Shown here one piece after another: positions 2,036 to 63,068 of a stretch of DNA of 64,000 nucleotides. The DNA is from Minisyncoccia bacterium (lineage in GTDB: Bacteria; Patescibacteriota; Minisyncoccia; Phycocordibacterales; UBA9973): NCBI GenBank assembly GCA_049287305.1, contig JBAQFO010000012.1, forward strand, positions 89,768 to 153,767, written 5' to 3'. A program made the translations under genes and the position numbers. Each line of letters starts with the position of its first letter. Within the stretch, counting starts at the first letter, position 1. The notes beneath the pieces were generated by a model. The model searched no databases, was not told where the DNA came from, and saw only the letters and a list, made by a program, of their open reading frames with translations.

Positions 2036-2296
2036 ATGGACAAAAAAGAAAAAACCATAAAGTTTCTTGGAACGCTTGGCACAACCATAGCTATACTTAT
2101 GTTCGTTTCGCTTCTTGAAATCGCCCGAGCAAACATAAGAGGCGAGAGTCATATATTCATACAGCCGATTATGGTTACAATAAATTGTTTTACTTGGTCA
2201 TTGTATGCTTATCTTAAAAAAGAAAAGTTCGTATTTTGGGCAAATTTCCCAGGAGTCCTACTTGGAATTATTACAATAATAACAGCTTTTATATAA
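2036..2296 (+). CDS. small three-helix membrane protein with SemiSWEET-like topology
   Basis: 86 aa with three hydrophobic segments and Trp and Asn at SemiSWEET-like positions (FTWSLYAY, FWANFPG), but no PQ motif. The stop lies 2 nt before the ileS ATG. Confidence 0.35.
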   Translation: MDKKEKTIKFLGTLGTTIAILMFVSLLEIARANIRGESHIFIQPIMVTINCFTWSLYAYLKKEKFVFWANFPGVLLGIITIITAFI

Positions 2297-2298
2297 AT

Positions 2299-5200: not shown

Positions 5201-5808
5201 CCCCTTTCGCTGCGGAAGACATCTGGTTAAAACTTAGAACAGACAAAGATAAAGAAAGTGTGCATTTGGAAAATTGGCCGACCGAATCCAATATTTTAGG
5301 CATTCTAATGCGACTACCCGGACAAATGCGCACCCTGGTCTACATGGATGAAGTAAGGAAAATAGTAACCCTGGGACTTGAGGCTAGGCAGAAAACCGGG
5401 ATAAAAGTCCGCCAGCCACTTGCCTCCATCAAGGTAAAGTTCGGGAAGCTTGGAGCGGAATACTTGGAATTAATAAAAGAAGAACTGAACGTGAAAGAAA
5501 TAATCTTTGATGATTCAATTTCAGAGGAAGTATTGCTGGATATAAGAATAGACGAAGAACTGAAAGCGGAAGGAAGCTATCGCGAACTTGTGCGGGCTCT
5601 TCAGGATATGAGGAAAAAATCAGGACTTACGCCGAGCGATGTCATAGCGCTTACCATTGCAACAAACGAAGACGGGAAAGCGTTGATTGAGAAATTCCAG
5701 GCGGACATGAAGAAAACAGTTCTTGTCTCAAATATAGAATTTGCTGAAAATGACGGGGAGAAAATAGTAGTTGATGAGTTGGTTTTCAGGGTTAAGATTG
5801 AGAAATAA
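2299..5808 (+). CDS. ileS: isoleucyl-tRNA synthetase (type-2, Thermus/eukaryote-like) carrying an inserted histidine-phosphatase domain
   Basis: The HIGH-class motif PTANGMPGIHH and the KMSKS motif are both present. The CP1 editing region (TTTPWTLPGN), WGTPLP and DVWFDSG are also there. The start is ATG 2299 (MSEETKK); the track ORF from 2236 is an upstream extension. Confidence 0.93.
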   Translation: MSEETKKIIEKSDAAFREEKVLEFWKDNKIFNKTLEASAGKKEFIFYDGPPTANGMPGIHHLIPQSFKDAIPRYKTMREFHVRRKGGWDTHGLPVELLVEKELGLKSKKEIESYGIAAFNQKCKESVWKHVDVWYKYRDRVGYWVDKDNPYVTYHNEFIESLWSVVKKINERGLLYKDYKVVPWCPRCGTALSSHELAQGYEDVKDLSVTAKFKVVGQNNTYILAWTTTPWTLPGNVALAVGENIDYVKVKVGAELYILAKARLSIITESYEIVEEIKGGGLIGLEYEPLFPYFKNTISENEKPKLEKAFRVHKANFVTTEDGTGVVHTAVMYGQDDFVLGNEVGLPKHHMVGLDGKFLPGTGIFERRFVKDEEVAVDIIKDLAGRGLLFKKEKYEHSYPHCWRCKTPLIYYARDSWYIKMSDPKIKAELISQNKEINWEPAHTRDGRFGEWLREIKDWAISRERYWGTPLPVWSCETCKKTEVLGSIEDIKSKAKKSGNKYLVMRHGGTNANKKGLVSYKNEASDHLTEEGKRQVTASAEKLSSQKIDLIVASPFVRTKETALIVKDKFGLGEDQVVFDSRLAEFDPGDFDGKEWKDYHRYIASSGSGWFNQTIPGGESLKDVGERTASLLYEIENKFSGKNILIVTHGGPAWLLFVNSGLFIPGGEAYRIPNGESFVKEFQQLRNAEVRELPFAPLPHNEKYELDLHKPYIDEVKMVCSCGGELIRTKEVMDVWFDSGAMPFAQDHYPFENKKWVEGPGFPADFIAEAIDQTRGWFYTLHAVGILMGRGKAYKNVICLGHLLDAKGKKMSKSLGNVVNPWEVMDKYGVDTLRLWMYSINQPGESKNFDEKTVALLSQQVFGLLYNVLAFYELYRDKSYEDNSRPSSKNILDKWILTRLFELRNDVTANMDSYKLLEPVRGMRDFIGDLSTWYLRRSRERIKEGDSEAKATLYFVLKSLAKLMAPFAPFAAEDIWLKLRTDKDKESVHLENWPTESNILGILMRLPGQMRTLVYMDEVRKIVTLGLEARQKTGIKVRQPLASIKVKFGKLGAEYLELIKEELNVKEIIFDDSISEEVLLDIRIDEELKAEGSYRELVRALQDMRKKSGLTPSDVIALTIATNEDGKALIEKFQADMKKTVLVSNIEFAENDGEKIVVDELVFRVKIEK
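3796..4410 (+). other. in-frame histidine phosphatase (PGAM/SixA-like) domain inserted in IleRS between the WGTPLPVW...KAKKSG and LDLHKPYIDEV segments
   Basis: The catalytic RHG is at 3814-3822 (LVMRHGGTNAN). Further PGAM-type segments are LTEEGKRQ, IVASPFVRTKETA, RLAEFDPGDFDG, PGGESLKDVGER and a second His motif ILIVTHGG (His near 4243). A Thermus-type IleRS has only about 40 aa between these flanking motifs. Confidence 0.7.
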
Positions 5809-24338: not shown

Positions 24339-26321
24339 ATGAGTAAATTATTTAAATCAAAATTCCTTCTTGGAGTTATGGTTGTAGCCGTATTGGTTGT
24401 AGGCGGAGTTGCATTTGGTGCAAGCGACGCTTCAGCTGATTGTACAATCGTGAATACCTTGAGGGTTGGTTCTGTAGGCGATGAAGTAAAGTGTTTACAG
24501 GGCAAAGTTGGAGCAACCGCTGACGGCAAGTTCGGTCCTATGACTGCAACTTCTGTTAAGGCTTTCCAAGCTTCCAAAGGATTGTCCCCTGACGGTGTCG
24601 TAGGTCCTATGACCCGCGCAGCTTTGATGGGAGCTCCTACAGGAAACTTCCCAGCAGGTTGTACTTCAGCTTCTGGATTTAGTTCTACAACTGGTCTTCC
24701 ATGTAACAGTGGTCCATCAGCAGGACTTCCAGCAGGTTGTTCTTCAACTGCAGGGTTCTCTCCTCTAACTGGCACAAAGTGTGATAGTTCAGCAGCCCCA
24801 ACACCTGATGGTGATCTAGCAGGAACAGCAGGAACTGTTACATATACCCAGTTGTCACAATACACTAATGAAAAGGTGGGAGCTGGCGTAACTGATACAA
24901 AAATTGCTGGATTTGAACTTGAGGCATCAGACGGAGATGTATCACTTAGGTCATTCAAACTAACCTTTAGTTCCACTGGAAATGCAGCAGCAGATTCAGA
25001 TCGTCTTATTGATTACCTTGATTCAGTATCAATCTGGCAAGGTGAAGAAGAAATCGGTTCTGCTGACACAGTAGACTTCACGAGAGACAGCGCTGGTGTT
25101 TATTCAAAGGTTGTGACTGTTTCTGACGCTATCGTTAGAGATGGTGATACGGAGAAATTCTACATCGCCGTTAACGCAGCAAACAACATAGACTCAGCAG
25201 ATATTGACTCAGATTCTTGGGGTGTTGATCCTATTAACGTAAGATATGAGGATGGAGGTGGTGTAGTGTCAACAGATACTATCACACAGGCTGAAATCCC
25301 ACTTAACTTCGTTACTTCCGCATCAGCAACTGATACTGAACTTAAGCTAACAGTTGATTCAACATTGAAGGCTGGTGTTCAGACTGCGAATGTAACTTCT
25401 GACACAAATGATGTTCTTATCTTAAAGGGTACTTTGGAAATAGAAGGTTCATCTGATGTTTGGTTGGATGAAGTTCCATTCTTGTTTACTACAAACGCTA
25501 CAAACGCGGATGCTGTATCAAACACTGTATACTTTACTATTGACGGAACAGAATTCTCAGAATCTATGGGTTCTGCAGTAGGAACTACAGAAGTTATTAC
25601 CTTTAACGAGCTTGATAAGACTCTTGCTCCTGGTAAATACACATTTACTGTTACAGCAGATGTGAATGATATTGAGGACAGCACATTTGACGAAGGAGAC
25701 TACTTGTTAGCAGAATTGGATGCTACTCGTCGTGCTTCTATCGTTGCTCTTAACACAGAGGGTGGCGATCAGTTGACTGACGCTACAGAAATGACTGGTG
25801 TTGCCGCAGGTACCATCCAGTACTTCTATTCAAAGTCACCAACGGTTACAGTAGAATCAAAGTCTATCGTAGCTAACGATAACGGTTCAAGCGCTCCATC
25901 TTCTGCAACTGCTAAGATGAGACTAAAGATTGTAGCTAACGGCGGAACCATCTACCTTAACGGTGATGATGAAACCACACAAGCTGAAGAGTTCTTTGGT
26001 ATAGCTGTTGATGGAGGGGATGCAAGTTCTTCAATCAGCGCTACGGGATATACATTTACACCATCAGGCACTTATACTGTTACAAACAGTGGTGCTGATA
26101 ATGAATACTTCACTATGAATGAAGGTGACATAATGTATATTGACATTGAAGCTACAGTCGTAGAAGCTACCGGTTCAGCTGCTATACTAGTAGGTATGAA
26201 GGGAGACGAAATTTCCTTCGGTACTGATAGTACATCTGGAGCTACTCGTTCAGCTAACGACTTGAGCTTCACAGCGTTAACTGATCTCTTGAAGACAGGA
26301 AAGGTAACATTGGATAGCTAA
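24339..26321 (+). CDS. secreted or cell-wall-associated protein with a PG_binding_1-like domain, two Cys-bracketed repeats and a large beta-rich region
   Basis: N-terminal signal or anchor. CLQGKVGATADGKFGPMTATSVKAFQ resembles a peptidoglycan-binding domain. The repeats are GCTSASGFSSTTGLPC and GCSSTAGFSPLTGTKC. Confidence 0.6.
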   Translation: MSKLFKSKFLLGVMVVAVLVVGGVAFGASDASADCTIVNTLRVGSVGDEVKCLQGKVGATADGKFGPMTATSVKAFQASKGLSPDGVVGPMTRAALMGAPTGNFPAGCTSASGFSSTTGLPCNSGPSAGLPAGCSSTAGFSPLTGTKCDSSAAPTPDGDLAGTAGTVTYTQLSQYTNEKVGAGVTDTKIAGFELEASDGDVSLRSFKLTFSSTGNAAADSDRLIDYLDSVSIWQGEEEIGSADTVDFTRDSAGVYSKVVTVSDAIVRDGDTEKFYIAVNAANNIDSADIDSDSWGVDPINVRYEDGGGVVSTDTITQAEIPLNFVTSASATDTELKLTVDSTLKAGVQTANVTSDTNDVLILKGTLEIEGSSDVWLDEVPFLFTTNATNADAVSNTVYFTIDGTEFSESMGSAVGTTEVITFNELDKTLAPGKYTFTVTADVNDIEDSTFDEGDYLLAELDATRRASIVALNTEGGDQLTDATEMTGVAAGTIQYFYSKSPTVTVESKSIVANDNGSSAPSSATAKMRLKIVANGGTIYLNGDDETTQAEEFFGIAVDGGDASSSISATGYTFTPSGTYTVTNSGADNEYFTMNEGDIMYIDIEATVVEATGSAAILVGMKGDEISFGTDSTSGATRSANDLSFTALTDLLKTGKVTLDS

Positions 26322-26609: not shown

Positions 26610-28544
26610 ATGAATTCAATCATCAGAAAAATAATCTTGGTTTTCATTTTTATATTGCCTTTTATAATTTTCCCATATACACCATATTCAATGGTGTTTT
26701 CAAAATCTCTTTTTTTAGAGGGTGTTACTCTCGTTATTGGTGTTCTTTGGATAATGGGCAAATTATTTAAAACAGAAACAGAAACAGAAAAAATTTCTAG
26801 AAATATCACCCTCTTTGTATTTGGAGTTTATGTTTTTTCTCTTTTAATTTCTGCTCTTAGTAGTTTTGTTCCCGGACTTTCATTTTGGGGAACCTTGGAC
26901 CATGGGACCGGAGCTGTTTTTATGCTGTGTTTATTCCTTTTTTCTGTCATTACCAGTTCGGTGTTTAAAAAGATAGAAGATTGGTACACACTTTTTACAA
27001 CTTTTGTGATTTCAGGAATTATTTTCACCTCGGGAACTTTTTTATCAGAAATGGGGATGAATTTTTTTCCCACTATAACGATCAATGCTTCAGGAGGTTT
27101 TCTTGTTGGCAACTCATCTTGGGCGGGAATTTATCTTGCTTTTGTTTTTTTTATAAGCCTAGGACTTACATTTTCACCACAAAACAAAAGTCATAGAGTT
27201 ATTGGTTTTTTGGGTTTAATCTTTACATTTTTTAACCCAATTATTACTGGCTTTATAATTCCGGCCCCTGATCAGTCTTTTCGGCTCATTGGTTTAGCTC
27301 GAGCATCATTATACTCTATTTTTGCTGGTACTAGTTTTTTTGTTCTTTATTTGTTTTTTAGAAAAATAACATCTATAAAGTGGAGAAAGATATGTATAGG
27401 AAGTTTTATTACGATTTTGGTTGCAGTATCTTTGTTTGTAGTAATCAGCCCAGGTGTGTTTCGTCAGGGCATATCTGAAACAGCCGGTCCAAATAGATTG
27501 ATCTTTTGGGATATTGCAGTTTCTAGTTTCAAAGAACATCCAGTTCTGGGGTGGGGTGGTGATACTTATCAGTTTGCATATGCGAAATATTTTAACCCAA
27601 TTATTACTTCTCCAGGTTATTCTCCAGAATATTGGGCAGATCGTGCACATAGTATATATTTTGACGAACTTCACGCTGGAGGTTTTATTGGTTTTATTTT
27701 ACTTATGTTTTTGTATGGAATAATTTTATTTGGTCTTTTACGTAATGGAATAAAACAAAATGATGAAAATAATATTTTGTTTATGGCTTTGGCGGCTGGG
27801 TTAATCTCTTTTTTGATACAAGGGCTGTTGTTGTTTCAGACTATTGTTGGTTGGGTGGTTGTGTCTATAGTTATTGCTTTTGTTGCTAATTTTTGTTTTA
27901 TGGATAGAAATGTAATTGATACTAAGATTGAGAAGAATAAAAAAAGAAATAAAGACAGTGATAATACTTTTCGTAATTTGTTTTCAGTAGTTGTTATAGT
28001 GATTTTTGGATTTTTATTTTACTATGTAATAATTGTGCCTTATCGTGTTGCTAATATGTTGGCTAGATTTCCGACTGAGTCTTATAGTAAAAGGTTAGAG
28101 CTTTATAAAGAAATAGATAATGCTTATATAGGAAATACCACAGATTTAGGAAATATTTTTTTACCATATCATATTAGACTTAGGCAAATATTGAAAAAAG
28201 GACTCAAGGATGAAGAAAAAAAATTAATGATAAACGAAGCCAAAGAAATTATTAGAATTTTGGATAATGGTTTAAAAAAGCAAGATTACAAAGAGCTGAA
28301 AATTTTGATGGGACAAGCAGGATTTTACTCAGTAGTTATAGCGTTAACTGACGGACAGGAAAGACAAGCTTATTATGATCAAAGTCTGTTTTATGTGGAA
28401 AAAATGAAGCTAGCTTCTCCTCAAAGCCCGACACCAGAAATAGCCAAAGCCCTGCTAGACATTTCCCTCAAATATGGCGAAGAAGGTCTGGATCTTTTAA
28501 ATTTGGATAAAGAAAAAGCTATAAAAGAAAGTAATAATAATTAA
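26610..28544 (+). CDS. O-antigen ligase/polymerase family (Wzy_C-like) membrane protein with a soluble C-terminal extension
   Basis: More than ten TM helices and a central periplasmic loop pattern (WGGDTYQF...YWADRAHSIYFDELHAGGFIG). Confidence 0.5.
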   Translation: MNSIIRKIILVFIFILPFIIFPYTPYSMVFSKSLFLEGVTLVIGVLWIMGKLFKTETETEKISRNITLFVFGVYVFSLLISALSSFVPGLSFWGTLDHGTGAVFMLCLFLFSVITSSVFKKIEDWYTLFTTFVISGIIFTSGTFLSEMGMNFFPTITINASGGFLVGNSSWAGIYLAFVFFISLGLTFSPQNKSHRVIGFLGLIFTFFNPIITGFIIPAPDQSFRLIGLARASLYSIFAGTSFFVLYLFFRKITSIKWRKICIGSFITILVAVSLFVVISPGVFRQGISETAGPNRLIFWDIAVSSFKEHPVLGWGGDTYQFAYAKYFNPIITSPGYSPEYWADRAHSIYFDELHAGGFIGFILLMFLYGIILFGLLRNGIKQNDENNILFMALAAGLISFLIQGLLLFQTIVGWVVVSIVIAFVANFCFMDRNVIDTKIEKNKKRNKDSDNTFRNLFSVVVIVIFGFLFYYVIIVPYRVANMLARFPTESYSKRLELYKEIDNAYIGNTTDLGNIFLPYHIRLRQILKKGLKDEEKKLMINEAKEIIRILDNGLKKQDYKELKILMGQAGFYSVVIALTDGQERQAYYDQSLFYVEKMKLASPQSPTPEIAKALLDISLKYGEEGLDLLNLDKEKAIKESNNN

Positions 28545-28547
28545 TTT

Positions 28548-29450
28548 ATGGAAAAAATAATTGTAACAGGTGGAGCGGGGTTTATAGGTTCACATATTGT
28601 AGATGCTCTTATTGAGGAAGGATACGAAGTGCATGTCGTAGACAATATGTCAGCTGGGAGAAAAGAAAATATAAACCCAAAAGCAGTTTTACATATAGTA
28701 GATATAAGAGAAAAAGAAAAGCTGATCCCGATATTTACAAATGCAAAATATGTATTTCATGAAGCAGCATTTCCGCAAGTTCAGTATTCCATAGAGAATC
28801 CCGTTGAAACTAACGCGATTAACGTAGAAGGTACTTTAAATATTTTAGAGGTTTCTAGGATAAATAAGGTTAAGAGGGTAATTTTTGCTTCTTCTTCTGC
28901 TGTATATGGTGACCAAGATATATTACCCATAACCGAAAGCATGGAAGCGAGTCCACTTTCTCCATATGGCGCACAGAAATACATAGGTGAAGTTTATATG
29001 AAACTTTATGCGCAGATTTATGGAGTAGAGACTATCTCTCTTCGGTATTTTAATGTGTATGGACCTAGGCAGAGCGCAAGTGGTGCCTACGCGTCGGCGA
29101 TTCCTAAATTTATAGAATTTCGGCAGAAGAACGAACCACTTTCTATCACCGGAGACGGCGAACAGACTAGAGATTTTGTAAATGTTAAAGATATAGTTTC
29201 TGCCAACATTTTGGCCATGAAAGGGGATAAGGTAGGAAAAGGGGAAGTGTTAAATATCGGAGGAAATAATCAATACTCTATCAATTACATTGCAAAACTG
29301 GTGGGAGGAGAAGTTTCTTATATTCCTCCTCGAATAGAACCTAGAAATACCCAAGCAGGAATATCAAAGGCTAAGGAGTTCTTAAATTGGGAACCACGTG
29401 TTGTCCTGGAGGAAGGCATAGAAGAATTAAAGAAGTATAACAATATTTAA
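28548..29450 (+). CDS. NAD-dependent sugar epimerase/dehydratase (UDP-hexose 4-epimerase-like)
   Basis: VTGGAGFIGSH Rossmann motif and extended SDR features. Confidence 0.8.
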   Translation: MEKIIVTGGAGFIGSHIVDALIEEGYEVHVVDNMSAGRKENINPKAVLHIVDIREKEKLIPIFTNAKYVFHEAAFPQVQYSIENPVETNAINVEGTLNILEVSRINKVKRVIFASSSAVYGDQDILPITESMEASPLSPYGAQKYIGEVYMKLYAQIYGVETISLRYFNVYGPRQSASGAYASAIPKFIEFRQKNEPLSITGDGEQTRDFVNVKDIVSANILAMKGDKVGKGEVLNIGGNNQYSINYIAKLVGGEVSYIPPRIEPRNTQAGISKAKEFLNWEPRVVLEEGIEELKKYNNI

Positions 29451-48604: not shown

Positions 48605-49909
48605 TTAATAGGTGAACACCTTCGCAATTGTTTTAAGAACAATCAAGATATCAAAAAAGATGGTTCTGTTTTTTATATAATAAAAATCATATCTTAATTT
48701 TTCCCTAGCATCTTCTACGGAAGACCCGTATTTGTAATTTACCTGAGCCCAGCCCGTCAATCCTGCTTTCACGGAATGTCTTAAATCATAATATAAGATA
48801 TCTTTTTTTAATACATTTATAAATTCTGGTCTTTCGGGACGAGGGCCAACAAAAGAAATATCACCCCTTAGAATATTTACTAATTGCGGAATTTCATCTA
48901 TGTGTGTTTCTCTCATAAATCGTCCAATCGGTGTTATCCTAGGATCCCTTCTGTTGTTTTCTGTCCAAACAGCGCCATTCTTTTCTGCATCAACATACAT
49001 AGATCTAAATTTATAAATAGTAAACTCTGTGTCATTCAGACTAATTCTCTTGTGTTTAAATAATACTGGCCCCCTTGATGTTATTTTAATTAGAATAGGA
49101 ATAATTATAAAAAGAGGTAAGAAAACAATCATTAATACGAAAGATAGACTCGCATCCAAAGCTCTTTTTGTAAAGTTGAAAATAGCTCTATTTTTGCTTA
49201 AATAATCCACAATTTCTTCCTTTTCTATTTTTTCAGTTGGAACTTTTTGAAATATTTCTGCATAAAAATTATTTATTGTGTATGCGAAAATTCCTCTCTT
49301 GATAAGAGTATAAATCTTATCAAATTCTTTTTCTGAAATTGAATTTATGACGACTAGGTCTGGATTTAGATTTATTATTTCATTTAAATCAAAATTGTTT
49401 GTTTCTTTTATAATTTCATAACCAATATTTTGATTTTGTTTTAACTCTGAGACCAAACTATTTTCTCCCTCGCTTATAATAATTATTTTCCTGTTAACCC
49501 CTTTTTTTACGAAATATCTCTTAATCAGGATTCTTAAATAAAAATCACTGATTCCAAAGATTGCTGTGAATAAAACCAAATTTGTTTTCGGAGTTAATTT
49601 AAAAAAATCTCCAAACATATAAAAGATCAAAGCAGAGAGAGCGAATGACACAGCCAAGCTTTTTATAAAAGAGTTGGTGAATTCAGCTGTGTTTTTGTTA
49701 AATCTAAAAGAGTATAAATTGAATATATAAAAAATAAGTAAAAACAAAAGGATGATAATAGAAAAGGGAAGAGCGTGGGCAGTTATTTGAGAATAAAGAT
49801 CACTCCCTCCATACCTTATAAAAAGCATCAAAAAAAGAGCACCAAAAGCGACAATTAAATCAACAATAAAAATAAGAAACATCTTAAATTGTATAAGTAA
49901 ACCCTTCAT
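48605..49909 (-). CDS. undecaprenyl-phosphate sugar phosphotransferase (WbaP/bacterial sugar transferase family)
   Basis: N-terminal TM helices and the conserved C-terminal sugar transferase domain (PRPERPEF-like region, ending DILIVLKTI). Confidence 0.8.
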   Translation of the reverse strand: MKGLLIQFKMFLIFIVDLIVAFGALFLMLFIRYGGSDLYSQITAHALPFSIIILLFLLIFYIFNLYSFRFNKNTAEFTNSFIKSLAVSFALSALIFYMFGDFFKLTPKTNLVLFTAIFGISDFYLRILIKRYFVKKGVNRKIIIISEGENSLVSELKQNQNIGYEIIKETNNFDLNEIINLNPDLVVINSISEKEFDKIYTLIKRGIFAYTINNFYAEIFQKVPTEKIEKEEIVDYLSKNRAIFNFTKRALDASLSFVLMIVFLPLFIIIPILIKITSRGPVLFKHKRISLNDTEFTIYKFRSMYVDAEKNGAVWTENNRRDPRITPIGRFMRETHIDEIPQLVNILRGDISFVGPRPERPEFINVLKKDILYYDLRHSVKAGLTGWAQVNYKYGSSVEDAREKLRYDFYYIKNRTIFFDILIVLKTIAKVFTY

Positions 49910-50573: not shown

Positions 50574-50882
50574 ATGGAAAATGATTCAATCAACGAAAAT
50601 ATCCCTGAAGAAGACAAAGCTCCGACTCGACTTGAGATAATTCAAAGCAAAAAGAATCTAATAATGCTGATAGTTGGAGTCTTGGTTTTGGCGACCTTGG
50701 CTATTTTCGGAGCTTCAAAATATTTGAAACCCGTGAGACTTGAAACCATAGAAGATGGTTGCCGTTCGGGCGACAGATTTAGTCAGACGACAGGCAAGCC
50801 GTGTCAGGGAGGAGAATTGCCTCCGACTTGCCTAGAAGGAGACCTCTTCAATCATGAAACGGGTGAACCGTGTCTGGAATAA
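50574..50882 (+). CDS. small membrane-anchored protein with two Cys-bracketed repeats
   Basis: A TM helix followed by CRSGDRFSQTTGKPC and CLEGDLFNHETGEPC. Confidence 0.5.
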   Translation: MENDSINENIPEEDKAPTRLEIIQSKKNLIMLIVGVLVLATLAIFGASKYLKPVRLETIEDGCRSGDRFSQTTGKPCQGGELPPTCLEGDLFNHETGEPCLE

Positions 50883-54664: not shown

Positions 54665-54693
54665 TTGGTTTAAATTTAAGGTAAGTGTATAAT
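54665..54693 (+). promoter_or_regulatory. promoter TTGGTT-17-TATAAT placed 6 nt before ATG 54700 (leaderless-type)
   Basis: Read from the sequence. Confidence 0.45.
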
Positions 54694-54699
54694 TAACGT

Positions 54700-57048
54700 A
54701 TGAAAAAATACATCTCAGCATTTTTTATAGTTGCTATTGTTTTTGGTCTTTTTAGTTTTAATATTAAACCAACTCTTGCTAAAACAAGAAGCGTTTCTTC
54801 GGGTGCTGAGTGTCCTAGTGTACTGGATGATTTTTCCGACAACGCTCCGCCGAGGCTTGCTTATGTGAACAAACATGCTTTGAATTTATATGTTGGAGAA
54901 GACTATAGTAATCACGGCGGTAGAGACTATGGAGCTATTGGAACAAGAATGACGAATTTGTTGTCAGGCAATTTAAAGCCTATAGTGGTAACAGCGCTTG
55001 ATCCTCTTCCATCCGGATTGACCAGCATAAAACAAGACGAGATAACTTACGGGAGAGAAATCACGACCTATGTAAATGGTGTTCTTGTGTCCAGCAAGGG
55101 CCCTTGGCTCAGACTTTTTATTCCAGGTAGTCCGAAACAAGTCGGAGATACTTTAGTAAGGATTAAAGCCGAATTTATGTCCGAAGGAGTTCCTTGTGTT
55201 GAAACAGGTTTTATTAATTTTCACATTACAAAGAAAAAAGACAAATCTACTCCTCCGCCTCCGCCGCCCATAGATACAACTCCAAGCGCTGGAGGTAAAA
55301 TAAGGTTTATTAAAGAAGCCGTAAAACCTATTCAAAGAGATCCCAACGGGAGCGTAACCCTTGAAGAAATACTAGCAATAAAGGACAAGTTTGTGATTTC
55401 CGGCGAATGTGGCAGCAGGTTCACCAATCTATGGGTAATTAAAGAAGACGGCTCTGTCGTTTCAGAAAGAAATGCCTGCGTGGATGCGATGCACGGCACC
55501 GGTTGGGCCGATTTATACGGACATGGGCATATTTCTTCGCAGTTATTATTAAATTGGGGCAACGACGAGGGTGCTTTTGTGCACGGGATAGTAGCTACCG
55601 GCAATATGTGGATATGTTTACTCCGAGGTCCGAGCGGTGAGCCGGGAGATTGTGAACCGGAAAATGTTTATCCCGGCGGATTCAATCGCGCCGTTTATTA
55701 TGGGATGGATGAAACAGGCAGGATAGAACCAGTTTCCGTTTCTCCGGACCCAGGCGGACCAATAACATACAACTATGGTTTGACTGTATTAAAGGATCGG
55801 CTTCTTACAAGAGAGGGAAAATTACTTGGCCTGCCAGACTGGAACAGTCAGGGGGCTAGTGGTGCTATAGATGAAAACAGCAGTATCGGATTTGGCGATT
55901 TCCTTATCCAGCGGTATGGCAATAACAGCAATGGAGGCTGGAAAGTATATAAAGTTTCCGCAAATGGCGCAAAAACATACCTAGAGACCTTGCCCGTAAA
56001 ATACAATGCCTTATATAATTTTGATAACTCTACCTGGCCGCCCAAACTGACATTTTTGGAGTATGTTAATGGCTCGGGATACCCTACACCAAGTCCAGTA
56101 AGAATTTATGCTTATAAAGCTACAGCCAGTGGCATTACATTAGATAAAACGATTAATTTGCCTGCAACCTTTTCTCATTTGCCGGTGGCTGCTTATGGAA
56201 CAAAGTTTGCAGTATGGGGGGACTACGTGGCTGTTATCTCCAGCGGTAAAACTGGTGCTCAATACAAAAGTGCGGGGGGAGCTATGGTAGATCTTTATAA
56301 CACCAGAATAGAACTCTGGAAAAATGGCACCAAAATAGACGAGTTGGTAGCGATTCCCGATCCATATGGCGGGAGTCTAAGCATGGCTACGATTTCCAAA
56401 AATGGATATTTAGCAGTAAGGGAAAGTAAAAACAACGCGATTCGTATTTATAAACTTGAGATGGGTCCGTCTACGGACCTTCCCATTACCCCCATAGCTA
56501 CCGGCTGCGCCTCTGGCGAAAAATTTAGCAGCAGCACCGGTGTTCCTTGCACCTGCGTTCTTAATCCGCCATTCCCACTTGGGACAAGAGGAGAGGCCGT
56601 CAGAGTGTTACAGCAAAAACTAAAAGACGCTGGATTCTTTGGTAGTAATAAAGTTGACGGAGTATACGGACCCGCGACTGCGGCAGCTGCCATGGCTCAC
56701 TGTGCGAGCGTAGAGAATCCTAGATACAAAGTAACTCCACCAACCTCTTCTACCGCTCCTGTAATAAAAGCAATAAGCGGACCGACGTCCCTAAAAGTAA
56801 ATGAACAAGGAACCTGGACAGCCACAGCCACTGATGCCAATAATGATGACCTCTCTTGGAGTGTAAACTGGGGAGAAGGAAAGTCCACCGAAACATGTAA
56901 AGTAAATCCACCAGTGGGAACTTCTCAAAACTGGAGCTATACCGTTTCAAACGGCTGGACAAAGGCCGGAAGCTACACGGTTAAAATCTACGTAAACGAT
57001 TGCAAAGGAGGAACAACAAGCAAGTCTTTCACTGTGAAAGTAAACTAA
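54700..57048 (+). CDS. secreted surface protein: signal peptide, large beta-rich region, Cys-bracketed repeat, PG_binding_1-like domain and a C-terminal PKD-like domain
   Basis: MKKYISAFFIVAIVFGLF signal peptide, CASGEKFSSSTGVPC, RGEAVRVLQQKLKDAGFFGSNKVDGVYGPATAAAAM, and WSVNWGEG...GSYTVKIYVND (PKD-like). Confidence 0.65.
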   Translation: MKKYISAFFIVAIVFGLFSFNIKPTLAKTRSVSSGAECPSVLDDFSDNAPPRLAYVNKHALNLYVGEDYSNHGGRDYGAIGTRMTNLLSGNLKPIVVTALDPLPSGLTSIKQDEITYGREITTYVNGVLVSSKGPWLRLFIPGSPKQVGDTLVRIKAEFMSEGVPCVETGFINFHITKKKDKSTPPPPPPIDTTPSAGGKIRFIKEAVKPIQRDPNGSVTLEEILAIKDKFVISGECGSRFTNLWVIKEDGSVVSERNACVDAMHGTGWADLYGHGHISSQLLLNWGNDEGAFVHGIVATGNMWICLLRGPSGEPGDCEPENVYPGGFNRAVYYGMDETGRIEPVSVSPDPGGPITYNYGLTVLKDRLLTREGKLLGLPDWNSQGASGAIDENSSIGFGDFLIQRYGNNSNGGWKVYKVSANGAKTYLETLPVKYNALYNFDNSTWPPKLTFLEYVNGSGYPTPSPVRIYAYKATASGITLDKTINLPATFSHLPVAAYGTKFAVWGDYVAVISSGKTGAQYKSAGGAMVDLYNTRIELWKNGTKIDELVAIPDPYGGSLSMATISKNGYLAVRESKNNAIRIYKLEMGPSTDLPITPIATGCASGEKFSSSTGVPCTCVLNPPFPLGTRGEAVRVLQQKLKDAGFFGSNKVDGVYGPATAAAAMAHCASVENPRYKVTPPTSSTAPVIKAISGPTSLKVNEQGTWTATATDANNDDLSWSVNWGEGKSTETCKVNPPVGTSQNWSYTVSNGWTKAGSYTVKIYVNDCKGGTTSKSFTVKVN

Positions 57049-57095
57049 CTCTGTTCGCAAATTGCGAAACATACAAGGGGGTGTATAATTGGGGT

Positions 57096-59729
57096 ATGAA
57101 AAAACTTTTCTTGAGCGTTTCATTTTTAGCATTAGCTTTTTACTTTACTAGCGGTATTGAAGTTTCCGCTCAAGTTGCTCCCCAAGCTTATCCCTTCGGC
57201 AAGACAGTACAGGGCAATCTACGTGTTAATAATCCTATAACCGTAGCTGACGGAGAGGATTACTGGTTTCAGATCACCAATGCTCCTTTGAATGCTCAAG
57301 TAAAGCTCTGGGTGGACAATGGTGACAGTAAGGGCTTCCAAGATTTTGGGGTTATAGGAAAAACTGCGCAAAGCAATACCGCGTATGTACAAGTGGGAGA
57401 TTTTAATTTGCAGAAGGTTTTGGATTGTTCTAAATACGAATATTTAGAGCCTGGCAAGAGTTTGTCAGTGGGCAACCGGGACTTGTTTCAGAGATTCTAT
57501 GTGGAATTTGTAGGTTTAAATAAAGTCTCTAATATTGACTCGGCCGTGCGGGACTGTTCTCAGACAGGAGACCCGGTATCTACCGGCAATATAATTTTCC
57601 CTTATACATTAGAAAGTATTTACGGCAGAAATAATATCGTCAAGCCTTTTCCCGACAGCTACCCCTCCGGAATACCTGCGTCGCTGAAATTTGCCGGAAG
57701 ATACTTTGACGGACGCGACAGAGGCGGCACAAACACAGGCCTAGGCTTTGAATGGTATGAACCGTATGGAGTTTCAACTAATGTTGAGGGGGGCAATAAT
57801 CCGAGAATTGTGGGAAACAAGATTTATCTTGCTATCGGAGGCACCATAGCTACATATAACAAAGATACATTTCTCAGTCGAATTGCCAATAAAGCAAATG
57901 ATTCCCTAGCTGTTTTCGCTGGAACTCAGGAACATAATACCCATGATTTAAAATTTCAATATGATCACTCTGCTGTGCCCTGGGATGCCTACATATATCC
58001 AGAACATCCAGACAACGCATGGATGCGTGAATTTTGTGACTGCCATACGGGTGTCACGTGGTTCGAAGCAGATGACCGCGGATATGTGTATTTCAGTGAT
58101 TCCTTCGGTTTCGGTATTGCCCGAGATAGTGGTTCGAGTTTACGGATAATTACACAAGTACGAGACACAGAAAGTATATATAATACAGACGGGTCAATAC
58201 ATGCTTCGCCCTGGCTTCGAACCGGTAAAAACGGGACAGTGAGGTTAACCGATATGGATGGCTATGGAAAGCCAAATGGAGACAGTAGTCATATAACGGT
58301 AGTCAAAACCGGAGGTAAATATTATGCAGTATTTACCGGACTATCTGCAAGTGGGGCAGGAGGCACGAAAATAATAGATGTTACTGATCCAAACAATCCT
58401 GCCTATGTGCGATCTGATCCAAAAGAGGCTATCCGCAAATTAGTTCAGGCCGGTGAAACTGTCGCAGTAACTACCGGAATTTCTCATGGCGGATTTGCGC
58501 AAACAAATTCTGAGATTAAGATTTACAATGCAGCAGATTTTATCAACGGTGGTGCACCGCTGAAAACTTTTGTTGCCGGACCTGTAATGCAGGATAAACA
58601 TGCAACAGCAGCTTATACTGGCTTAGCAATAGATAAAGTTAGTAAGAAAATTTACTCCGTGGTGTACTCTTCCAATCCAAGGCCAAAGTCCAGCATACCG
58701 GCATACATATTGCCGACTGCCTCTGTCGCTGTATTTACTCCGAGCGGGAGTATTTATACCGAACAAAGATATGTAATCAGTCCGGAAACAATGGGAGGAA
58801 GGGCTGGAAATCCTGGTTGGAACGGGTATCAGTATATTTACACAATAAAAGATCTGGATTATCAAAGTGGTTACCTGGTTGCAAGAGGTCAAGCTCCGGA
58901 TTTATACAGCGACGTTAAGATATGGAAACTTGCGACTGGCGCACCACAAGAACTAGATACCAAAGATTTTTTGCACGAATATTATAAAGGGTTAGGTGAA
59001 ATATATCAGGTGAGCGTCCAGGTAATAGGAGAAAAAGCTTTTCTATTTGTCGGCACTTTTTATACAGCCGATGTCTATGAACTTACAGGTGCAGTTTCAG
59101 TTACTCCCACGGACCCAGTTGTGGATAACGGCTGTGCTGCAGGAAATGTTTACAGCACGACCACTGGCAACCCCTGCGTCTGCGTCCTTAATCCACCGTT
59201 TCCGCTCGGAACAAGAGGAGAAGAAGTCAAAGTGCTTCAACGAAAACTGAAAGCTGCGGGGTTCTTTGGTAGCAATAAAATAGATGGAATTTTCGGACCA
59301 ATGACAGCAGCAGCCGCCTTGGCTTATTGTTCCAGCGTGGAGCATCCGAGATATACTCCAACCCCTACACCAACGTCAACAGCGCCAACAATAAACACGA
59401 TAGATGGTCCTACCTCCATAAGTGTAAATACGCTAGGGACTTGGACCGCCAGAGCGACAGATGCGAACGGCGACGACCTTACTTGGTCAGTAAACTGGGG
59501 AGGAGGACGCTCAACACATACTTGCCCTATAAATGCACCAAAAGGAACTTCGCAAGGCTGGAATTACACAACATCTAACTCATGGTCCCAGACGGGGACA
59601 TACACGGTTACAATGTATGCTTCAGATTGCAGGGGGGGCACGGTCAGTAAAACAACTTCAGTTACCGTAACGGGCGGCGGAGGGGGAGGGGGCGGACAGC
59701 CAATAGACCCGGCTCAGAACGTATTTTAG
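57096..59729 (+). CDS. secreted surface protein paralog with the same C-terminal module (Cys repeat, PG_binding_1-like, PKD-like) plus a poly-Gly tail
   Basis: Start at ATG 57096 (MKKLFLSVSFLALAFYF), preceded by TATAAT 6 nt upstream. The C-terminal roughly 180 aa align closely with the previous gene. Confidence 0.65.
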   Translation: MKKLFLSVSFLALAFYFTSGIEVSAQVAPQAYPFGKTVQGNLRVNNPITVADGEDYWFQITNAPLNAQVKLWVDNGDSKGFQDFGVIGKTAQSNTAYVQVGDFNLQKVLDCSKYEYLEPGKSLSVGNRDLFQRFYVEFVGLNKVSNIDSAVRDCSQTGDPVSTGNIIFPYTLESIYGRNNIVKPFPDSYPSGIPASLKFAGRYFDGRDRGGTNTGLGFEWYEPYGVSTNVEGGNNPRIVGNKIYLAIGGTIATYNKDTFLSRIANKANDSLAVFAGTQEHNTHDLKFQYDHSAVPWDAYIYPEHPDNAWMREFCDCHTGVTWFEADDRGYVYFSDSFGFGIARDSGSSLRIITQVRDTESIYNTDGSIHASPWLRTGKNGTVRLTDMDGYGKPNGDSSHITVVKTGGKYYAVFTGLSASGAGGTKIIDVTDPNNPAYVRSDPKEAIRKLVQAGETVAVTTGISHGGFAQTNSEIKIYNAADFINGGAPLKTFVAGPVMQDKHATAAYTGLAIDKVSKKIYSVVYSSNPRPKSSIPAYILPTASVAVFTPSGSIYTEQRYVISPETMGGRAGNPGWNGYQYIYTIKDLDYQSGYLVARGQAPDLYSDVKIWKLATGAPQELDTKDFLHEYYKGLGEIYQVSVQVIGEKAFLFVGTFYTADVYELTGAVSVTPTDPVVDNGCAAGNVYSTTTGNPCVCVLNPPFPLGTRGEEVKVLQRKLKAAGFFGSNKIDGIFGPMTAAAALAYCSSVEHPRYTPTPTPTSTAPTINTIDGPTSISVNTLGTWTARATDANGDDLTWSVNWGGGRSTHTCPINAPKGTSQGWNYTTSNSWSQTGTYTVTMYASDCRGGTVSKTTSVTVTGGGGGGGGQPIDPAQNVF

Positions 59730-59757
59730 TTGATAAATTATCTATTGGTAGTATACT
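59730..59757 (+). promoter_or_regulatory. promoter TTGATA-16-TATACT placed 6 nt before ATG 59764 (leaderless-type)
   Basis: Read from the sequence. Confidence 0.45.
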
Positions 59758-59763
59758 TTGGGT

Positions 59764-62358
59764 ATGAAAAAATACATGCGAGTGTTTCTCGTTCTAGTCT
59801 TTGTTTTCAGCCTATTTAGCATTAATGTCTACAACGCAAGCGCAACTACCCCTGCTTCCGAGGAGGGGTGTAGTGGAGGCGCGATATATAATTATTTAAC
59901 CGGGGAAAGATGTGTGGCTTCCCACCCCCAGGATGGATGCCAGCCCGGATTTAAATACAGCCCTCTTACCGGAGCCAGGTGTTCCGATGATGAAGATGAA
60001 GTTCCTATTTTTCCTCCGGGGTGCACTAGTAGTGCAGGGTATAGCTACTTAACAGGACAGCGCTGCTTCCCATACCCTGTCCCTGTTCCATTTCCTACAC
60101 CTCCTTCTGCGGTAAATTTCTCATATCTTCAAATCTCCGGAGTCCCATCCAAATATCAATTTTCCGTCAGCTCTCCAAAACTTTTTGATAAAGTAGTCAT
60201 AACTCCGGATTGCAGTGAAAGCGGAAAAATAGAAATAGTTGGACCTGTTGGTAAAGAAAGATGCAGAGCCTTCAGTGCGTCTCTCCGTCCGACAAACGGC
60301 ATTTCATATTCTGTTTACCTTACTTCAAAAGATGCGAATGTTCACTACGCAGATGTTCGTGCGGATATTTATTACAAAGGTTCTTTCGTGGGAACCAATA
60401 CGATTGAAGTCGCGGTTTATCCTTCCGTCAGCAATTCAGGTGGTCCTGTTATCAACGGAGTAAGCGGACCACAGACTTTAAATGTGAACCAACTAGGAAC
60501 TTGGAAAGTTTCAGCTTATAACAAAAATGGCGGGAATCTTTCTTATTCCGTTGTTTGGGGAGATGAGTATTCATACGGATACGGCGCAAATTCAAATGCA
60601 GTTAAAGCGGCGAATATTTCTCAACAGTCCGCAACCTTTACTCATATTTATTCTCAAGCGGGGACATATTCACCCACTTTCACGGTTACAAGTCCAAATA
60701 CAATCAGATGTGTTCAAGCTCCATGCCCTTCGAACGGAGGGAGTGCGCAAACTAGTTTGAGTGTAAACGTAGGGAATTCAAAAAACTCAGGATATTTATA
60801 TATTTCCCCTTCAAGTATTTCACTTGGCGTCGGTGAAAATAAAAGCGTAAAAGCATACTATCAGCCACCTATGCCCCCATGTCCTACTCTCACAGTGTGC
60901 GCGCAAGTAATGCCTGCGCCTAGTGATGTTACTGCTTATACAGATTGGTCATCAAGCAACTCCAATGTAGCCAAAGTGGAATACATAGCTCCTACTTGTA
61001 TAGGCTGCAAGTCTTATCCAATGGTGCGAGGAGTGTCTCCAGGAACTGCTAAAATTACTGCAATCTATGGTGAAGTTGTTGCAACAAATGTTGTATTTGT
61101 GGTGGGAAAAGAGGTATCTTCTATTACAGTTCTTTCTCCGAATGGCGGAGAAACATTTATACAAGGTCAGGAAAATAAAATTTCTTGGTCAGGCGGAAAT
61201 AATAGCGTAGATCTCGGGCTAGTTCTTGAGGGCGCCACTCAGAACACAAACATCGCTGGAAATCCTTATCAGATAGTGGGATGGATAAGAACTAATCTAA
61301 AGGCAAATTCTCCGGGGTATATTATGTGGGATGCCAAAAAAGTATGCGGGGGCGGAAATGTTTGTTGGAATGTGTCACCTGGCAGCTATAAAATAATAGC
61401 CATCACTGAAGATAAAGTTGGTAATAAACTCATATGGGATTCTATCGCTAATAAGCAAGGAGCGTGGGATTTAAGTGATAGTTATTTCAAAATTACAAGC
61501 GATACCCCAACTTCAACTAACTTAATAAAAATTCGTCCAGCAAATAAGCAAAAAAACTATGAACCGGGACAGATAGATGTCACCCTCGCTGAGTTCAATT
61601 TTACAGCGCTTGATTCTGGCACGAAGGCAACGTTTAGCGACCTTGGTTTTTGGGGGTTTATGGCTGATTCTCAAGGAAATTACTATACATCCAGTCCTAC
61701 ATACCCAACACATTTTAAAAATTTCACATTGTGGGTAAATGGAATAAAACACTCTTACGCTGAAGCATCTAGTATGGGCGATATAAGTTTTTCTGGAAAA
61801 AGTGAATTCTTGGTTTCTTACGGATCTCCTGTAAAAGTGTCGCTGAAAGCCAATGTAGCTGCTGGGATGTCTGCGGCGACCTACAGATTTGCTTTAACTG
61901 GCTATGGCACTGACGGCATTTACGATATTGATTATCTTGATTCTTCAGGTATGGTTTTTACGGGTGCGGATTCTGAGATTAAAATAAAGGGATCTACTTC
62001 CAATTGTTCGTCTTCAGGATATGATACTCAAACTGGCTTTCGTTGTGGGTGCACCTCAACTTCAGGATATAGCGCCACAAATGGCATGTCTTGCAAAATC
62101 AGCGACGATGGGAACGGGCGAAATCAGGTTTTTGGAGCCGAAACCTTTGCTTTCACGGAACGATTACAGCGAGGCTCGGAAGGAAATGAAGTTATAGAAT
62201 TGCAAAAATTTCTTGTTGAGGCGGGATATGACGTGGGTAGTGTTGACGGAAAATTTGGACTAAAAACACAAGCCGCTGTTTCTCAATTGCAGACAAAAAA
62301 TAATTTAAAAGTTGACGGAATTGTAGGAACCGAAGTCAGATTATTGCTTAATAGATAA
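59764..62358 (+). CDS. secreted surface protein with five Cys-bracketed repeats, a Big_2-like Ig domain and a C-terminal PG_binding_1-like domain
   Basis: Signal peptide MKKYMRVFLVLVFVFSLF. Repeats GCSGGAIYNYLTGERC, GCQPGFKYSPLTGARC, GCTSSAGYSYLTGQRC, CSSSGYDTQTGFRC and CTSTSGYSATNGMSC. Big_2-like segment (VSPGTAKITAIYGEVVATNV). C-terminal RGSEGNEVIELQKFLVEAGYDVGSVDGKFGLKTQAAVSQLQ. Confidence 0.65.
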   Translation: MKKYMRVFLVLVFVFSLFSINVYNASATTPASEEGCSGGAIYNYLTGERCVASHPQDGCQPGFKYSPLTGARCSDDEDEVPIFPPGCTSSAGYSYLTGQRCFPYPVPVPFPTPPSAVNFSYLQISGVPSKYQFSVSSPKLFDKVVITPDCSESGKIEIVGPVGKERCRAFSASLRPTNGISYSVYLTSKDANVHYADVRADIYYKGSFVGTNTIEVAVYPSVSNSGGPVINGVSGPQTLNVNQLGTWKVSAYNKNGGNLSYSVVWGDEYSYGYGANSNAVKAANISQQSATFTHIYSQAGTYSPTFTVTSPNTIRCVQAPCPSNGGSAQTSLSVNVGNSKNSGYLYISPSSISLGVGENKSVKAYYQPPMPPCPTLTVCAQVMPAPSDVTAYTDWSSSNSNVAKVEYIAPTCIGCKSYPMVRGVSPGTAKITAIYGEVVATNVVFVVGKEVSSITVLSPNGGETFIQGQENKISWSGGNNSVDLGLVLEGATQNTNIAGNPYQIVGWIRTNLKANSPGYIMWDAKKVCGGGNVCWNVSPGSYKIIAITEDKVGNKLIWDSIANKQGAWDLSDSYFKITSDTPTSTNLIKIRPANKQKNYEPGQIDVTLAEFNFTALDSGTKATFSDLGFWGFMADSQGNYYTSSPTYPTHFKNFTLWVNGIKHSYAEASSMGDISFSGKSEFLVSYGSPVKVSLKANVAAGMSAATYRFALTGYGTDGIYDIDYLDSSGMVFTGADSEIKIKGSTSNCSSSGYDTQTGFRCGCTSTSGYSATNGMSCKISDDGNGRNQVFGAETFAFTERLQRGSEGNEVIELQKFLVEAGYDVGSVDGKFGLKTQAAVSQLQTKNNLKVDGIVGTEVRLLLNR

Positions 62359-62452
62359 GCCTTTGGCGCAAATTGTTTCTTGCGGGGAAAGTCGTATACC
62401 CGGTAGTGAGTTTTGGTAAAGCACAAAGTGCGCTCCGACCTTGTTCGGAGCA

Positions 62453-62480
62453 TTGCCAAAATCTACTAACCGGGTATAAT
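62453..62480 (+). promoter_or_regulatory. promoter TTGCCA-16-TATAAT placed 6 nt before ATG 62487 (leaderless-type)
   Basis: Read from the sequence. Confidence 0.45.
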
Positions 62481-62486
62481 ACACAA

Positions 62487-63068
62487 ATGGAAATTCTAGG
62501 TAAAATATTGGGCAACTCTGCGCGGGTAAAAATAATGCGCCTCTTCCTCATTAATAGAGGTAAAACTTTTGCGGCCAAAGACGTGGCGAAAAGAAGCAGA
62601 GTAGCAGCTCCCATGGTGCGTCGGGAACTTCGCCTTTTGGCATCAGTTGGATTCATAAAGAAACGAGGGGCGAATTGGTCTTTTGATGCTCAGTTCCAAT
62701 ACGGTTCGGAGTTTGAAGACCTCCTTTTAGGAGGAGACACTTTAAGCAAAGAATCAATCCTGGGGAACTTCAAGAAAGTCGGACGCATTAAGCTGTTTGT
62801 CGTTTCCGGCATTTTCATTAAAAGCCACGAAAGCAGAGTGGACTTGCTTATTGTTGGAGACAAAATGAAACGGGGGAGGATAGAGGAAGGGGTAAAAAAA
62901 ATGGAAGCCGAAATGGGCGGAGAATTGTCCTACGCCGTCTTTGAAACTAAAGAATTCCTTTACAGACTAAATATGTATGACAAGCTGGTTCGGGACATCT
63001 TAGACTATCCTCACGAGGTAATTCTTCAGGCGAAGGAGTTATCCACACAAACCCTTAAAAAGGCTTAA
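62487..63068 (+). CDS. putative transcriptional regulator: N-terminal winged-helix (ArsR/MarR-like) plus an uncharacterised C-terminal domain
   Basis: The start is placed at MEILGK. The wHTH pattern is ARVKIMRLFLINRGKTFAAKDVAKRSRVAAPMVRRELRLLASVGFI. Confidence 0.4.
   Translation: MEILGKILGNSARVKIMRLFLINRGKTFAAKDVAKRSRVAAPMVRRELRLLASVGFIKKRGANWSFDAQFQYGSEFEDLLLGGDTLSKESILGNFKKVGRIKLFVVSGIFIKSHESRVDLLIVGDKMKRGRIEEGVKKMEAEMGGELSYAVFETKEFLYRLNMYDKLVRDILDYPHEVILQAKELSTQTLKKA

Follow-up and report, generated by a model that had tools for sequence, protein, structure and literature searches.

The PG_binding_1 domain is the usual non-covalent peptidoglycan anchor, known from wall hydrolases such as SleB and from monoderm surface proteins; the choline-binding repeats of Gram-positive bacteria (CW_binding_1), the SLH, LysM, GW and CWB2 repeats, and the LPxTG signal of sortase-anchored proteins are the other described systems closest to the one reported here. 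Patescibacteria make up a large, almost uncultured share of bacterial diversity and are thought to live attached to other cells; the way in which their envelope proteins are retained is, to our knowledge, poorly understood. In this work we analysed a window of 64,000 nucleotides from a Minisyncoccia bacterium (assembly GCA_049287305.1, contig JBAQFO010000012.1, positions 89,768 to 153,767 of the forward strand), which we take to be an ultra-small, groundwater-type member of the Patescibacteria. It carries three tandem genes, g1, g2 and g3, whose predicted surface proteins share with two other proteins of the window a cysteine repeat of 15 residues. This repeat is a large, lineage-restricted and uncatalogued family. 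The products of g1, g2 and g3 resemble PG_binding_1 proteins in carrying this domain with scores above the Pfam cut-off. The repeat shares with choline-binding and SLH-type repeats a period of about 20–25 residues, a predicted beta-hairpin, conserved aromatic and glycine residues, an arrangement in tandem arrays at a protein terminus and the association with many different passengers. Its database relatives resemble LPxTG proteins, as they place the repeats directly before LPxTG, a hydrophobic stretch and a basic tail. The three genes are the following.

54700..57048, forward strand: gene 1 (g1), open reading frame (ORF) of 782 amino acids (AA)
57096..59729, forward strand: gene 2 (g2), ORF of 877 AA counted from the ATG
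59764..62358, forward strand: gene 3 (g3), ORF of 864 AA

An earlier reading of the window, made from the letters alone and called here the sequence-only reading, had counted about twelve copies of a cysteine-bracketed motif in five proteins. The five proteins are confirmed and the count is 11: one copy each in g1 and g2, five in g3, and two each in the proteins encoded at 24339 and 50574. The repeats and the proteins or modules that contain them lie as follows.

56506..56550, forward strand: Cys repeat of g1 (CASGEKFSSSTGVPC)
59133..59669, forward strand: C-terminal cassette of g2, made of a Cys repeat (59133-59177), a truncated PG_binding_1-like domain (59181-59354), a Thr/Pro linker and a PKD-like domain (59379-59669)
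59869..60066, forward strand: three N-terminal Cys repeats of g3 (59869-59913, 59938-59982, 60022-60066)
62005..62094, forward strand: two C-terminal Cys repeats of g3 (62005-62046, one residue short, and 62050-62094)
24339..26321, forward strand: 24339 protein, unlinked to g1–g3, with a signal peptide, PG_binding_1 and Cys repeats at 24660-24704 and 24738-24782
50574..50882, forward strand: 50574 protein of 102 AA, with an N-terminal transmembrane helix and Cys repeats at 50760-50804 and 50829-50873

The repeat has the consensus [AP]-G-C-x5-[YFW]-S-x-T-T-G-x2-C, with a fixed length of 15 residues from the first to the second cysteine, and this fixed-length pattern fits 10 of the 11 window copies, compared with 0.005 expected in shuffled windows. 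A HMMER profile made from the 11 window copies was searched against 1.84 billion cluster representatives and matched 745 of them at E <= 1e-3, 177 of which at E <= 1e-10. The best 150 proteins contain 588 fixed-length copies with a period of 24–26 residues, and the number of copies per protein ranges from 1 to about 12. Among these 588 copies, the Gly before Cys1 is conserved in 95%, S8 in 94%, T10 in 69%, T11 in 90% and G12 in 100%; Ala or Pro before that Gly, the aromatic residue at position 7 and the Cys at position 15 are also conserved. Two sub-types can be distinguished, with Gly at position 6 (458 copies) or at position 4 (169 copies), and the repeats of g1, g2 and the 50574 protein belong to the latter.

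The sequence-only reading could not assign the motif to a named domain, and the profile searches agree with it: excised repeat arrays have no match in Pfam-A (2025) even at E <= 10, the repeat regions have none in NCBIfam 20.0, and a three-repeat profile has none among the chain sequences of the Protein Data Bank (PDB) at E <= 10. A word-indexed search with two-repeat segments, which needs exact 5-mers, returned eight candidates, none of them significant. CW_binding_1 (PF01473) has no Pfam match in the window proteins or in the excised repeats, the resemblance to choline-binding repeats being one of layout only. We found no description of the repeat in the literature, and NCBI names the proteins that carry it by their PG_binding_1 domain only. 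The distribution of the repeat was studied with a degenerate DNA pattern in one genome per GTDB species, which matched at least 119 stretches, 80 of them listed. Among the matches listed, nearly all are in metagenome-assembled genomes (MAGs) labelled Patescibacteria (Nomurabacteria, Paceibacterota, Minisyncoccia, Lloydbacteria, Gribaldobacteria and 'Saccharibacteria'), which upholds the proposal that the motif is lineage-specific. Four loci among the matches listed carry other labels and all were checked. Neither the Mucilaginibacter (L017) nor the Clostridiales (L040) match encodes the motif in frame, and both are due to chance at the DNA level. A 5 kb contig of a 'Gammaproteobacteria' MAG (L043) contains three true repeats and is probably mis-binned, and a 3.6 kb contig of a 'Bathyarchaeia' MAG has a single in-frame match, which is ambiguous.

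Several observations bear on the fold of the repeat. Wherever the core [YFW]-S-x-[TVIL]-T-G occurs, both cysteines are nearly always in place (527 of 561 occurrences), and the 23 apparent losses of a single cysteine that were examined are due to indels of one residue that displace the cysteine. The number of cysteines is even in all five window proteins (12, 10, 20, 6 and 4) and in 146 of 192 motif proteins. Finally, in the AlphaFold model of g3 a beta-bridge joins motif positions 7 and 14 in repeats 1 and 2, with a predicted local confidence (pLDDT) of about 88–90. Taken together, the retention of cysteine pairs, their even counts and the predicted beta-bridge support a model in which the repeat would be a small beta-hairpin closed by a Cys1–Cys15 disulfide. 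We consider very improbable the alternative that the cysteine pairs bind metal between repeats, or that the repeats are sites of thioether formation or of Ser/Thr O-glycosylation, instead of forming intra-repeat disulfides. Many Patescibacteria live in anoxic groundwater, where extracytoplasmic disulfides are no given, and the repeat is rich in Ser and Thr, as this alternative would have it; however, g1 and g2 each hold a lone repeat with only two cysteines, the bias to even cysteine numbers argues against it, the proteins have Sec signal peptides and large folded domains, unlike the precursors of modified peptides, and the predicted hairpin brings together the strands beside the two cysteines.

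One relative of g3 in the databases (P0225) combines, in the precomputed Pfam list, PG_binding_1 and PKD with DsbA-type and thioredoxin-like domains (PF01323, PF13462), a layout that hints at extracytoplasmic disulfide chemistry in this class of proteins.

The N-termini of g1, g2 and g3 read as Sec signal peptides, each with MKK followed by a hydrophobic stretch of 15–20 residues and then by a cleavage motif of small residues (TLA|K, VSA|Q and ASA|T, respectively), as judged by eye. The domains that follow were located as below.

56554..56727, forward strand: truncated PG_binding_1-like domain of g1, with two helices (632-643 and 658-672 in the model)
56752..57042, forward strand: PKD-like beta-sandwich of g1 (PKD_4 23.1 bits, match to PDB 4xed)
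62161..62355, forward strand: complete three-helix PG_binding_1 of g3 (Pfam; pLDDT 93-98 in the model, approximately AA 801-864, the last seven 10-residue blocks)

In all three proteins PG_binding_1 (PF01471) scores above the Pfam gathering cut-off of 23 bits (27.3 in g1, 28.7 in g2 and 59.2 in g3), as the sequence-only reading had it. The domain is complete in g3, where profile positions 2–53 are matched (E = 4.7e-16) and three helices are modelled. In g1 and g2 it is truncated, as only profile positions 1–33 of 57 are matched and the complete three-helix domain is not present, and two additional cysteines flank it (C619 and C668 in g1). PKD_4 scores are 23.1 bits in g1, 14.2 in g2 and 15.4 in g3, all below the Pfam cut-off of 27 (PF00801 / PF18911). 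Nevertheless, the solved PKD domain of PDB 4xed is matched by g2 (E = 1.8e-5) and g1 (E = 5.5e-4), indicating that the domains are PKD-like but divergent, and the PKD-like domain proposed for these two proteins can be kept.

Apart from these domains the three proteins differ. The g1 protein is composed of a signal peptide, an N-terminal beta domain, a Pro-rich linker, a beta-propeller-like core (approximately AA 196–590) and the C-terminal cassette. Only three homologues were found, the best being 43% identical and from Ca. Paceibacterota. Its AlphaFold model is of low confidence (mean pLDDT 52.8) and only the fold class was used from it; its top Foldseek matches in the PDB are all beta-propellers. 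The g2 protein has a signal peptide, a beta-rich passenger, a C-terminal cassette as in g1 and a Gly8 tail. That g1 and g2 are full-length paralogues was considered and rejected, as hhalign gives a probability of 0.7% for the g1 family against the g2 passenger, and clear similarity is confined to approximately the last 180 residues. The g3 protein starts with a signal peptide and three Cys repeats, continues with PKD-like and further Ig-like beta-sandwich domains and ends with two Cys repeats and PG_binding_1, so that it does retain the repeats and the PG-binding domain, as noticed earlier. The Big_2-like domain that had been proposed to be swapped in is weak (PF02368, 19.9 bits for a gathering cut-off of 22.8), but the other beta domains are found: in the AlphaFold model, Ig-like beta-sandwich domains follow one another in a chain (pLDDT mostly 75–95 over roughly AA 225–580), and the Foldseek matches of this model include titin, contactins and the S-layer protein SbsC. 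An NCBI entry from a Minisyncoccia MAG, MFZ2150127.1, annotated as 'peptidoglycan-binding domain-containing protein', is identical to the g3 protein, and those homologues of g1 and g3 that have a named source come mostly from Paceibacterota, Nomurabacteria and other Patescibacteria MAGs. A sequence check found no LPxTG sorting signal in g1, g2 or g3. The products are thus predicted, from their signal peptides read by eye and their domain content, to be secreted, modular and wall-binding, in agreement with the sequence-only reading; as surface proteins of Patescibacteria anchored by PG_binding_1, g1, g2 and g3 are unexceptional. A role as adhesins or in host attachment is plausible from the same domain content.

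The position of the repeat in other proteins is informative. PG_binding_1 is its partner in 67 of the 93 top proteins, Kre9_KNH in 13 and PKD_4 in 11, and the nearest repeat usually lies 10–40 residues before or after PG_binding_1. In 79 proteins the first repeat begins at residues 20–39, right behind the signal peptide. Ten small proteins of 176–256 AA (P0031, P0037, P0039, P0061, P0094, P0097, P0101, P0113, P0127 and P0144) consist only of a signal peptide, three to five repeats and an LPxTG/hydrophobic/basic sorting signal, and in the 50574 protein and its relative P0137 two to three repeats accompany a transmembrane helix. Thus, whichever type of anchor a protein uses, its repeats are always anchor-proximal, and this is the main basis for reading the repeat as wall-embedded. 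Two other identities of the repeat were rejected. It is not a part of PG_binding_1, as 42 motif proteins in the set lack this domain and repeat-only proteins exist, nor is it the APP_N-like domain of some relatives, which is located elsewhere and lacks the motif.

The heparin-binding domain APP_N, known from the N-terminus of the animal amyloid precursor protein, reaches 27–34 bits, for a gathering cut-off of 22.1, in surface proteins related to g3 (P0222, AA 59–121; P0233, AA 426–519; P0234, AA 66–145).

We consider it probable, with real room for doubt, that this locus forms a rapidly evolving island in which three genes, each with a promoter of its own, encode exported surface proteins that are non-covalently anchored in the wall, with the repeats as the wall-embedded anchoring part. 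Each protein would combine a variable passenger (beta-propeller-like in g1, beta-rich and unrelated to it in g2, a chain of Ig-like domains in g3) with an anchoring region made of PG_binding_1 and one to five copies of the 15-residue repeat. The repeat arrays, with Pro/Ser/Thr linkers of 8–12 residues between copies, would form the part embedded in the wall, and may help to hold the protein in peptidoglycan or to thread it through, probably by binding wall glycan. The mRNAs would be leaderless and start at each ATG, as would those of many transcription units of this genome.

A possible but rather unlikely alternative is that the Cys repeats bind nothing and serve as rigid, inert spacers: beads, each stapled by a disulfide and joined by Pro/Ser/Thr linkers, that would lift the passengers through the wall or the S-layer. 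The repeats do occupy the wall-spanning position of Gram-positive surface proteins (before LPxTG, after the signal peptide or transmembrane helix, or beside PG_binding_1), and their copy number, free to vary as seen above, fits such a function. However, the residues that would be exposed, [YFW]7, S8, T10 and T11, are conserved at 69–100% over the 588 copies, beyond the needs of a spacer, and the small proteins reduced to repeats and an anchor have nothing to lift. That exposed residues are so strongly conserved in a tiny loop speaks for a role in binding rather than for a pure spacer.

Other observations weigh against the repeats being a wall-embedded anchoring part of independently promoted surface proteins. 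Model confidence is low for the two C-terminal repeats of g3 and for the single repeat of g1, and the truncated PG_binding_1 of g1 and g2 may be unable to bind peptidoglycan. LPxTG proteins that carry repeats are already covalently anchored, so that wall anchoring by the repeats would be superfluous there; anchoring cannot be the only role of the repeat, and in these proteins it could just as well be a stalk or have a displayed function. Finally, the scan predicted no terminator-like sites between g1, g2 and g3, and read-through transcripts are therefore possible.

The comparison with a related Paceibacterota contig shows how the locus evolves. Gene order in this contig is rplJ-rplL-purH, a g3-like gene (P0158), a g1-like gene (P0001), a gene for a 193-AA protein and an MscS-like gene. 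The flanking proteins (L10, L12, PurH, the 193-AA protein and the MscS-like protein) are 73–90% identical to those of the window. Identity is 33–43% for the surface proteins, whose genes are not the same in number or order: the related locus lacks a full-length counterpart of g2, and the match of the g1/g2 cassette lies there in the N-terminal part of its g3-like protein. As judged from the sequences, this pattern is that of a rapidly diversifying surface-protein island apparently built by domain shuffling. It could also be taken to mean that g1–g3 encode host-attachment adhesins under diversifying selection, with the Cys repeats as the adhesive part that binds a host surface glycan. The much faster evolution of the locus compared with its flanks and the variation of gene content between relatives are in line with this idea, as are the existence of repeat-only proteins and the general resemblance of repeats centred on an aromatic residue and hydroxyl residues to carbohydrate-binding repeats. 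We nevertheless find it improbable, because the repeat is highly conserved across many lineages and it is the passengers that vary, which speaks for a shared ligand of the cell's own rather than for differing ligands on hosts, and because the repeats are anchor-proximal and not at the distal tip.

The cassette shared by g1 and g2 had been described as about 75% identical and recently duplicated. Amino acids 602–781 of g1 and 679–858 of g2 align without a gap, so the sharing is real, but protein identity is 66% overall (119/180), 62% in the PKD-like part, and exceeds the proposed value only in the PG-binding-like part (79%). The idea of a recent event must be abandoned: DNA identity is 66% and only 43% at third codon positions, dN is 0.26 and dS about 2.1, and with synonymous sites thus saturated neither recent duplication nor gene conversion is supported. 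The nucleotide alignment, proposed as a check for gene-conversion tracts, contains no identical run longer than 13 nt. The cassette is an old duplication or shuffling event under purifying selection. As a widespread mobile module it is unsupported, since a metagenome scan with CVLNPPFP and KLK[DA]AGFF yielded one weak relative.

Each of the three genes is preceded by a promoter-like site.

54665..54693, forward strand: promoter-like site of g1, TTGGTT, 17 nt spacer, TATAAT (54688-54693)
57062..57089, forward strand: promoter-like site of g2, TTGCGA, 16 nt spacer, TATAAT (57084-57089)
59730..59757, forward strand: promoter-like site of g3, TTGATA, 16 nt spacer, TATACT (59752-59757)

The -35 sequence of g1, TTGGTT, was read by eye; it agrees with the consensus at three of six positions and is for this reason unlisted in the promoter scan. 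The sequence-only reading placed a -10 box about 6 nt before each start, and the -10 hexamers of g1, g2 and g3 indeed end exactly 6 nt ahead of the ATG, the geometry required for a leaderless mRNA. Since six intervening bases are the distance expected between a -10 box and the start of transcription, the A of each ATG is likely +1, and the transcripts of g1, g2 and g3 most likely start there. This geometry is genuine and does not arise at random, but it characterises the genome as a whole rather than g1–g3 in particular. When the ATGs that begin an ORF of 80 codons or more were scanned for a TATAAT-like box at each distance of 0–30 nt upstream, a spacing of 6 was found in nine cases in the window, all of them the first ATG of the ORF (6149, 12493, 22880, 50056, 50574, 54700, 57096, 59764 and 62487), compared with zero to three first-ATG cases for any other spacing. 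At 50574 the box is TACAAT, 6 nt ahead of the ATG, and the gene at 7849 has a spacing of 7. With the looser criterion TAnnnT, 13 of 46 window gene starts have a TATAAT-like box 6–7 nt before the ATG, and Shine-Dalgarno-like tetramers at -18 to -7 precede only two of the 46. The leaderless layout had been presented as a mark of the three genes; it does not distinguish them, being a common layout of transcription-unit starts in a genome nearly devoid of Shine-Dalgarno motifs. On their own, the leaderless layout and the cassette are unremarkable.

The ORF listed at 62373-63068 (forward strand) from a TTG at 62373 more likely starts at ATG 62487, giving 193 AA. This ATG has a near-consensus promoter, TTGCCA-16-TATAAT, which ends 6 nt upstream, and the counterpart in the related contig is likewise of 193 AA and 73% identical. 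The protein matches no Pfam family.

Some other features of the window are worth recording. The 24339 protein includes an acidic, Cys-free region of about 500 residues rich in Thr, Asp and Ser, and its N-terminus, MSKLFKSKFLLGVM, is near-identical in several database proteins, for instance P0070 and P0150; we regard it as a candidate major envelope or S-layer-like protein. From approximately 26000 to 50000, GC content falls from 0.42–0.47 to 0.30–0.37. This low-GC stretch encodes a Wzy_C O-antigen-ligase-like protein (26610-28544) and an NAD-dependent epimerase/dehydratase (28548-29450), and the ORF 48605-49909 on the reverse strand looks by eye like a sugar transferase; the region probably represents an island for envelope polysaccharides whose composition points to a different origin. 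Near the start of the window, an isoleucyl-tRNA-synthetase-like ORF (2236-5808, forward strand; tRNA-synt_1, E = 3.5e-113) carries an inserted His_Phos_1 domain (E = 1.2e-30) at AA 524–678.

The valuable part of this work is the repeat, for which a clear structural hypothesis can be stated and a role in the envelope can be tested. Its presence in at least 745 protein clusters and its ties to PG-binding domains and sortase signals provide a concrete, testable handle on the Patescibacteria envelope. A profile of the repeat would improve the annotation of many proteins that are now 'hypothetical' or merely 'peptidoglycan-binding', and would give a simple surface-protein marker for Patescibacteria. 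We tentatively propose, as a possibility, that the C-x5-[YFW]-S-x-T-T-G-x2-C hairpin represents a new, Patescibacteria-specific class of wall- or glycan-binding repeats, a general device for fixing surface and S-layer-like proteins and the counterpart of SLH and choline-binding repeats; it might also engage host-cell walls during episymbiosis.

Comparison with the known systems shows where this one stands apart. The leaderless mRNAs of Actinobacteria and Deinococcus-Thermus resemble the transcripts predicted here in having a -10 box that ends 6 nt before the start, no Shine-Dalgarno sequence and an ATG start. In those phyla the 5' ends have been mapped, whereas for this genome leaderless transcription is predicted from the geometry of the sequence, and we found no report in the literature on leaderless transcription in Patescibacteria. 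LPxTG proteins are held by sortase, whereas g1, g2 and g3 lack the signal and depend on PG_binding_1. In contrast with other PG_binding_1 proteins, g1 and g2 keep only the first two helices of the domain and carry an extra cysteine pair around it; unlike the PG_binding_1 hydrolases, g1–g3 have no hydrolase domain attached, and the Cys repeat nearly always accompanies the anchor. Finally, compared with the choline-binding, SLH, LysM, GW and CWB2 repeats, the Cys repeat has no sequence match to any of them, appears to be closed by a cysteine pair that they lack and, among the matches listed, is nearly confined to Patescibacteria.

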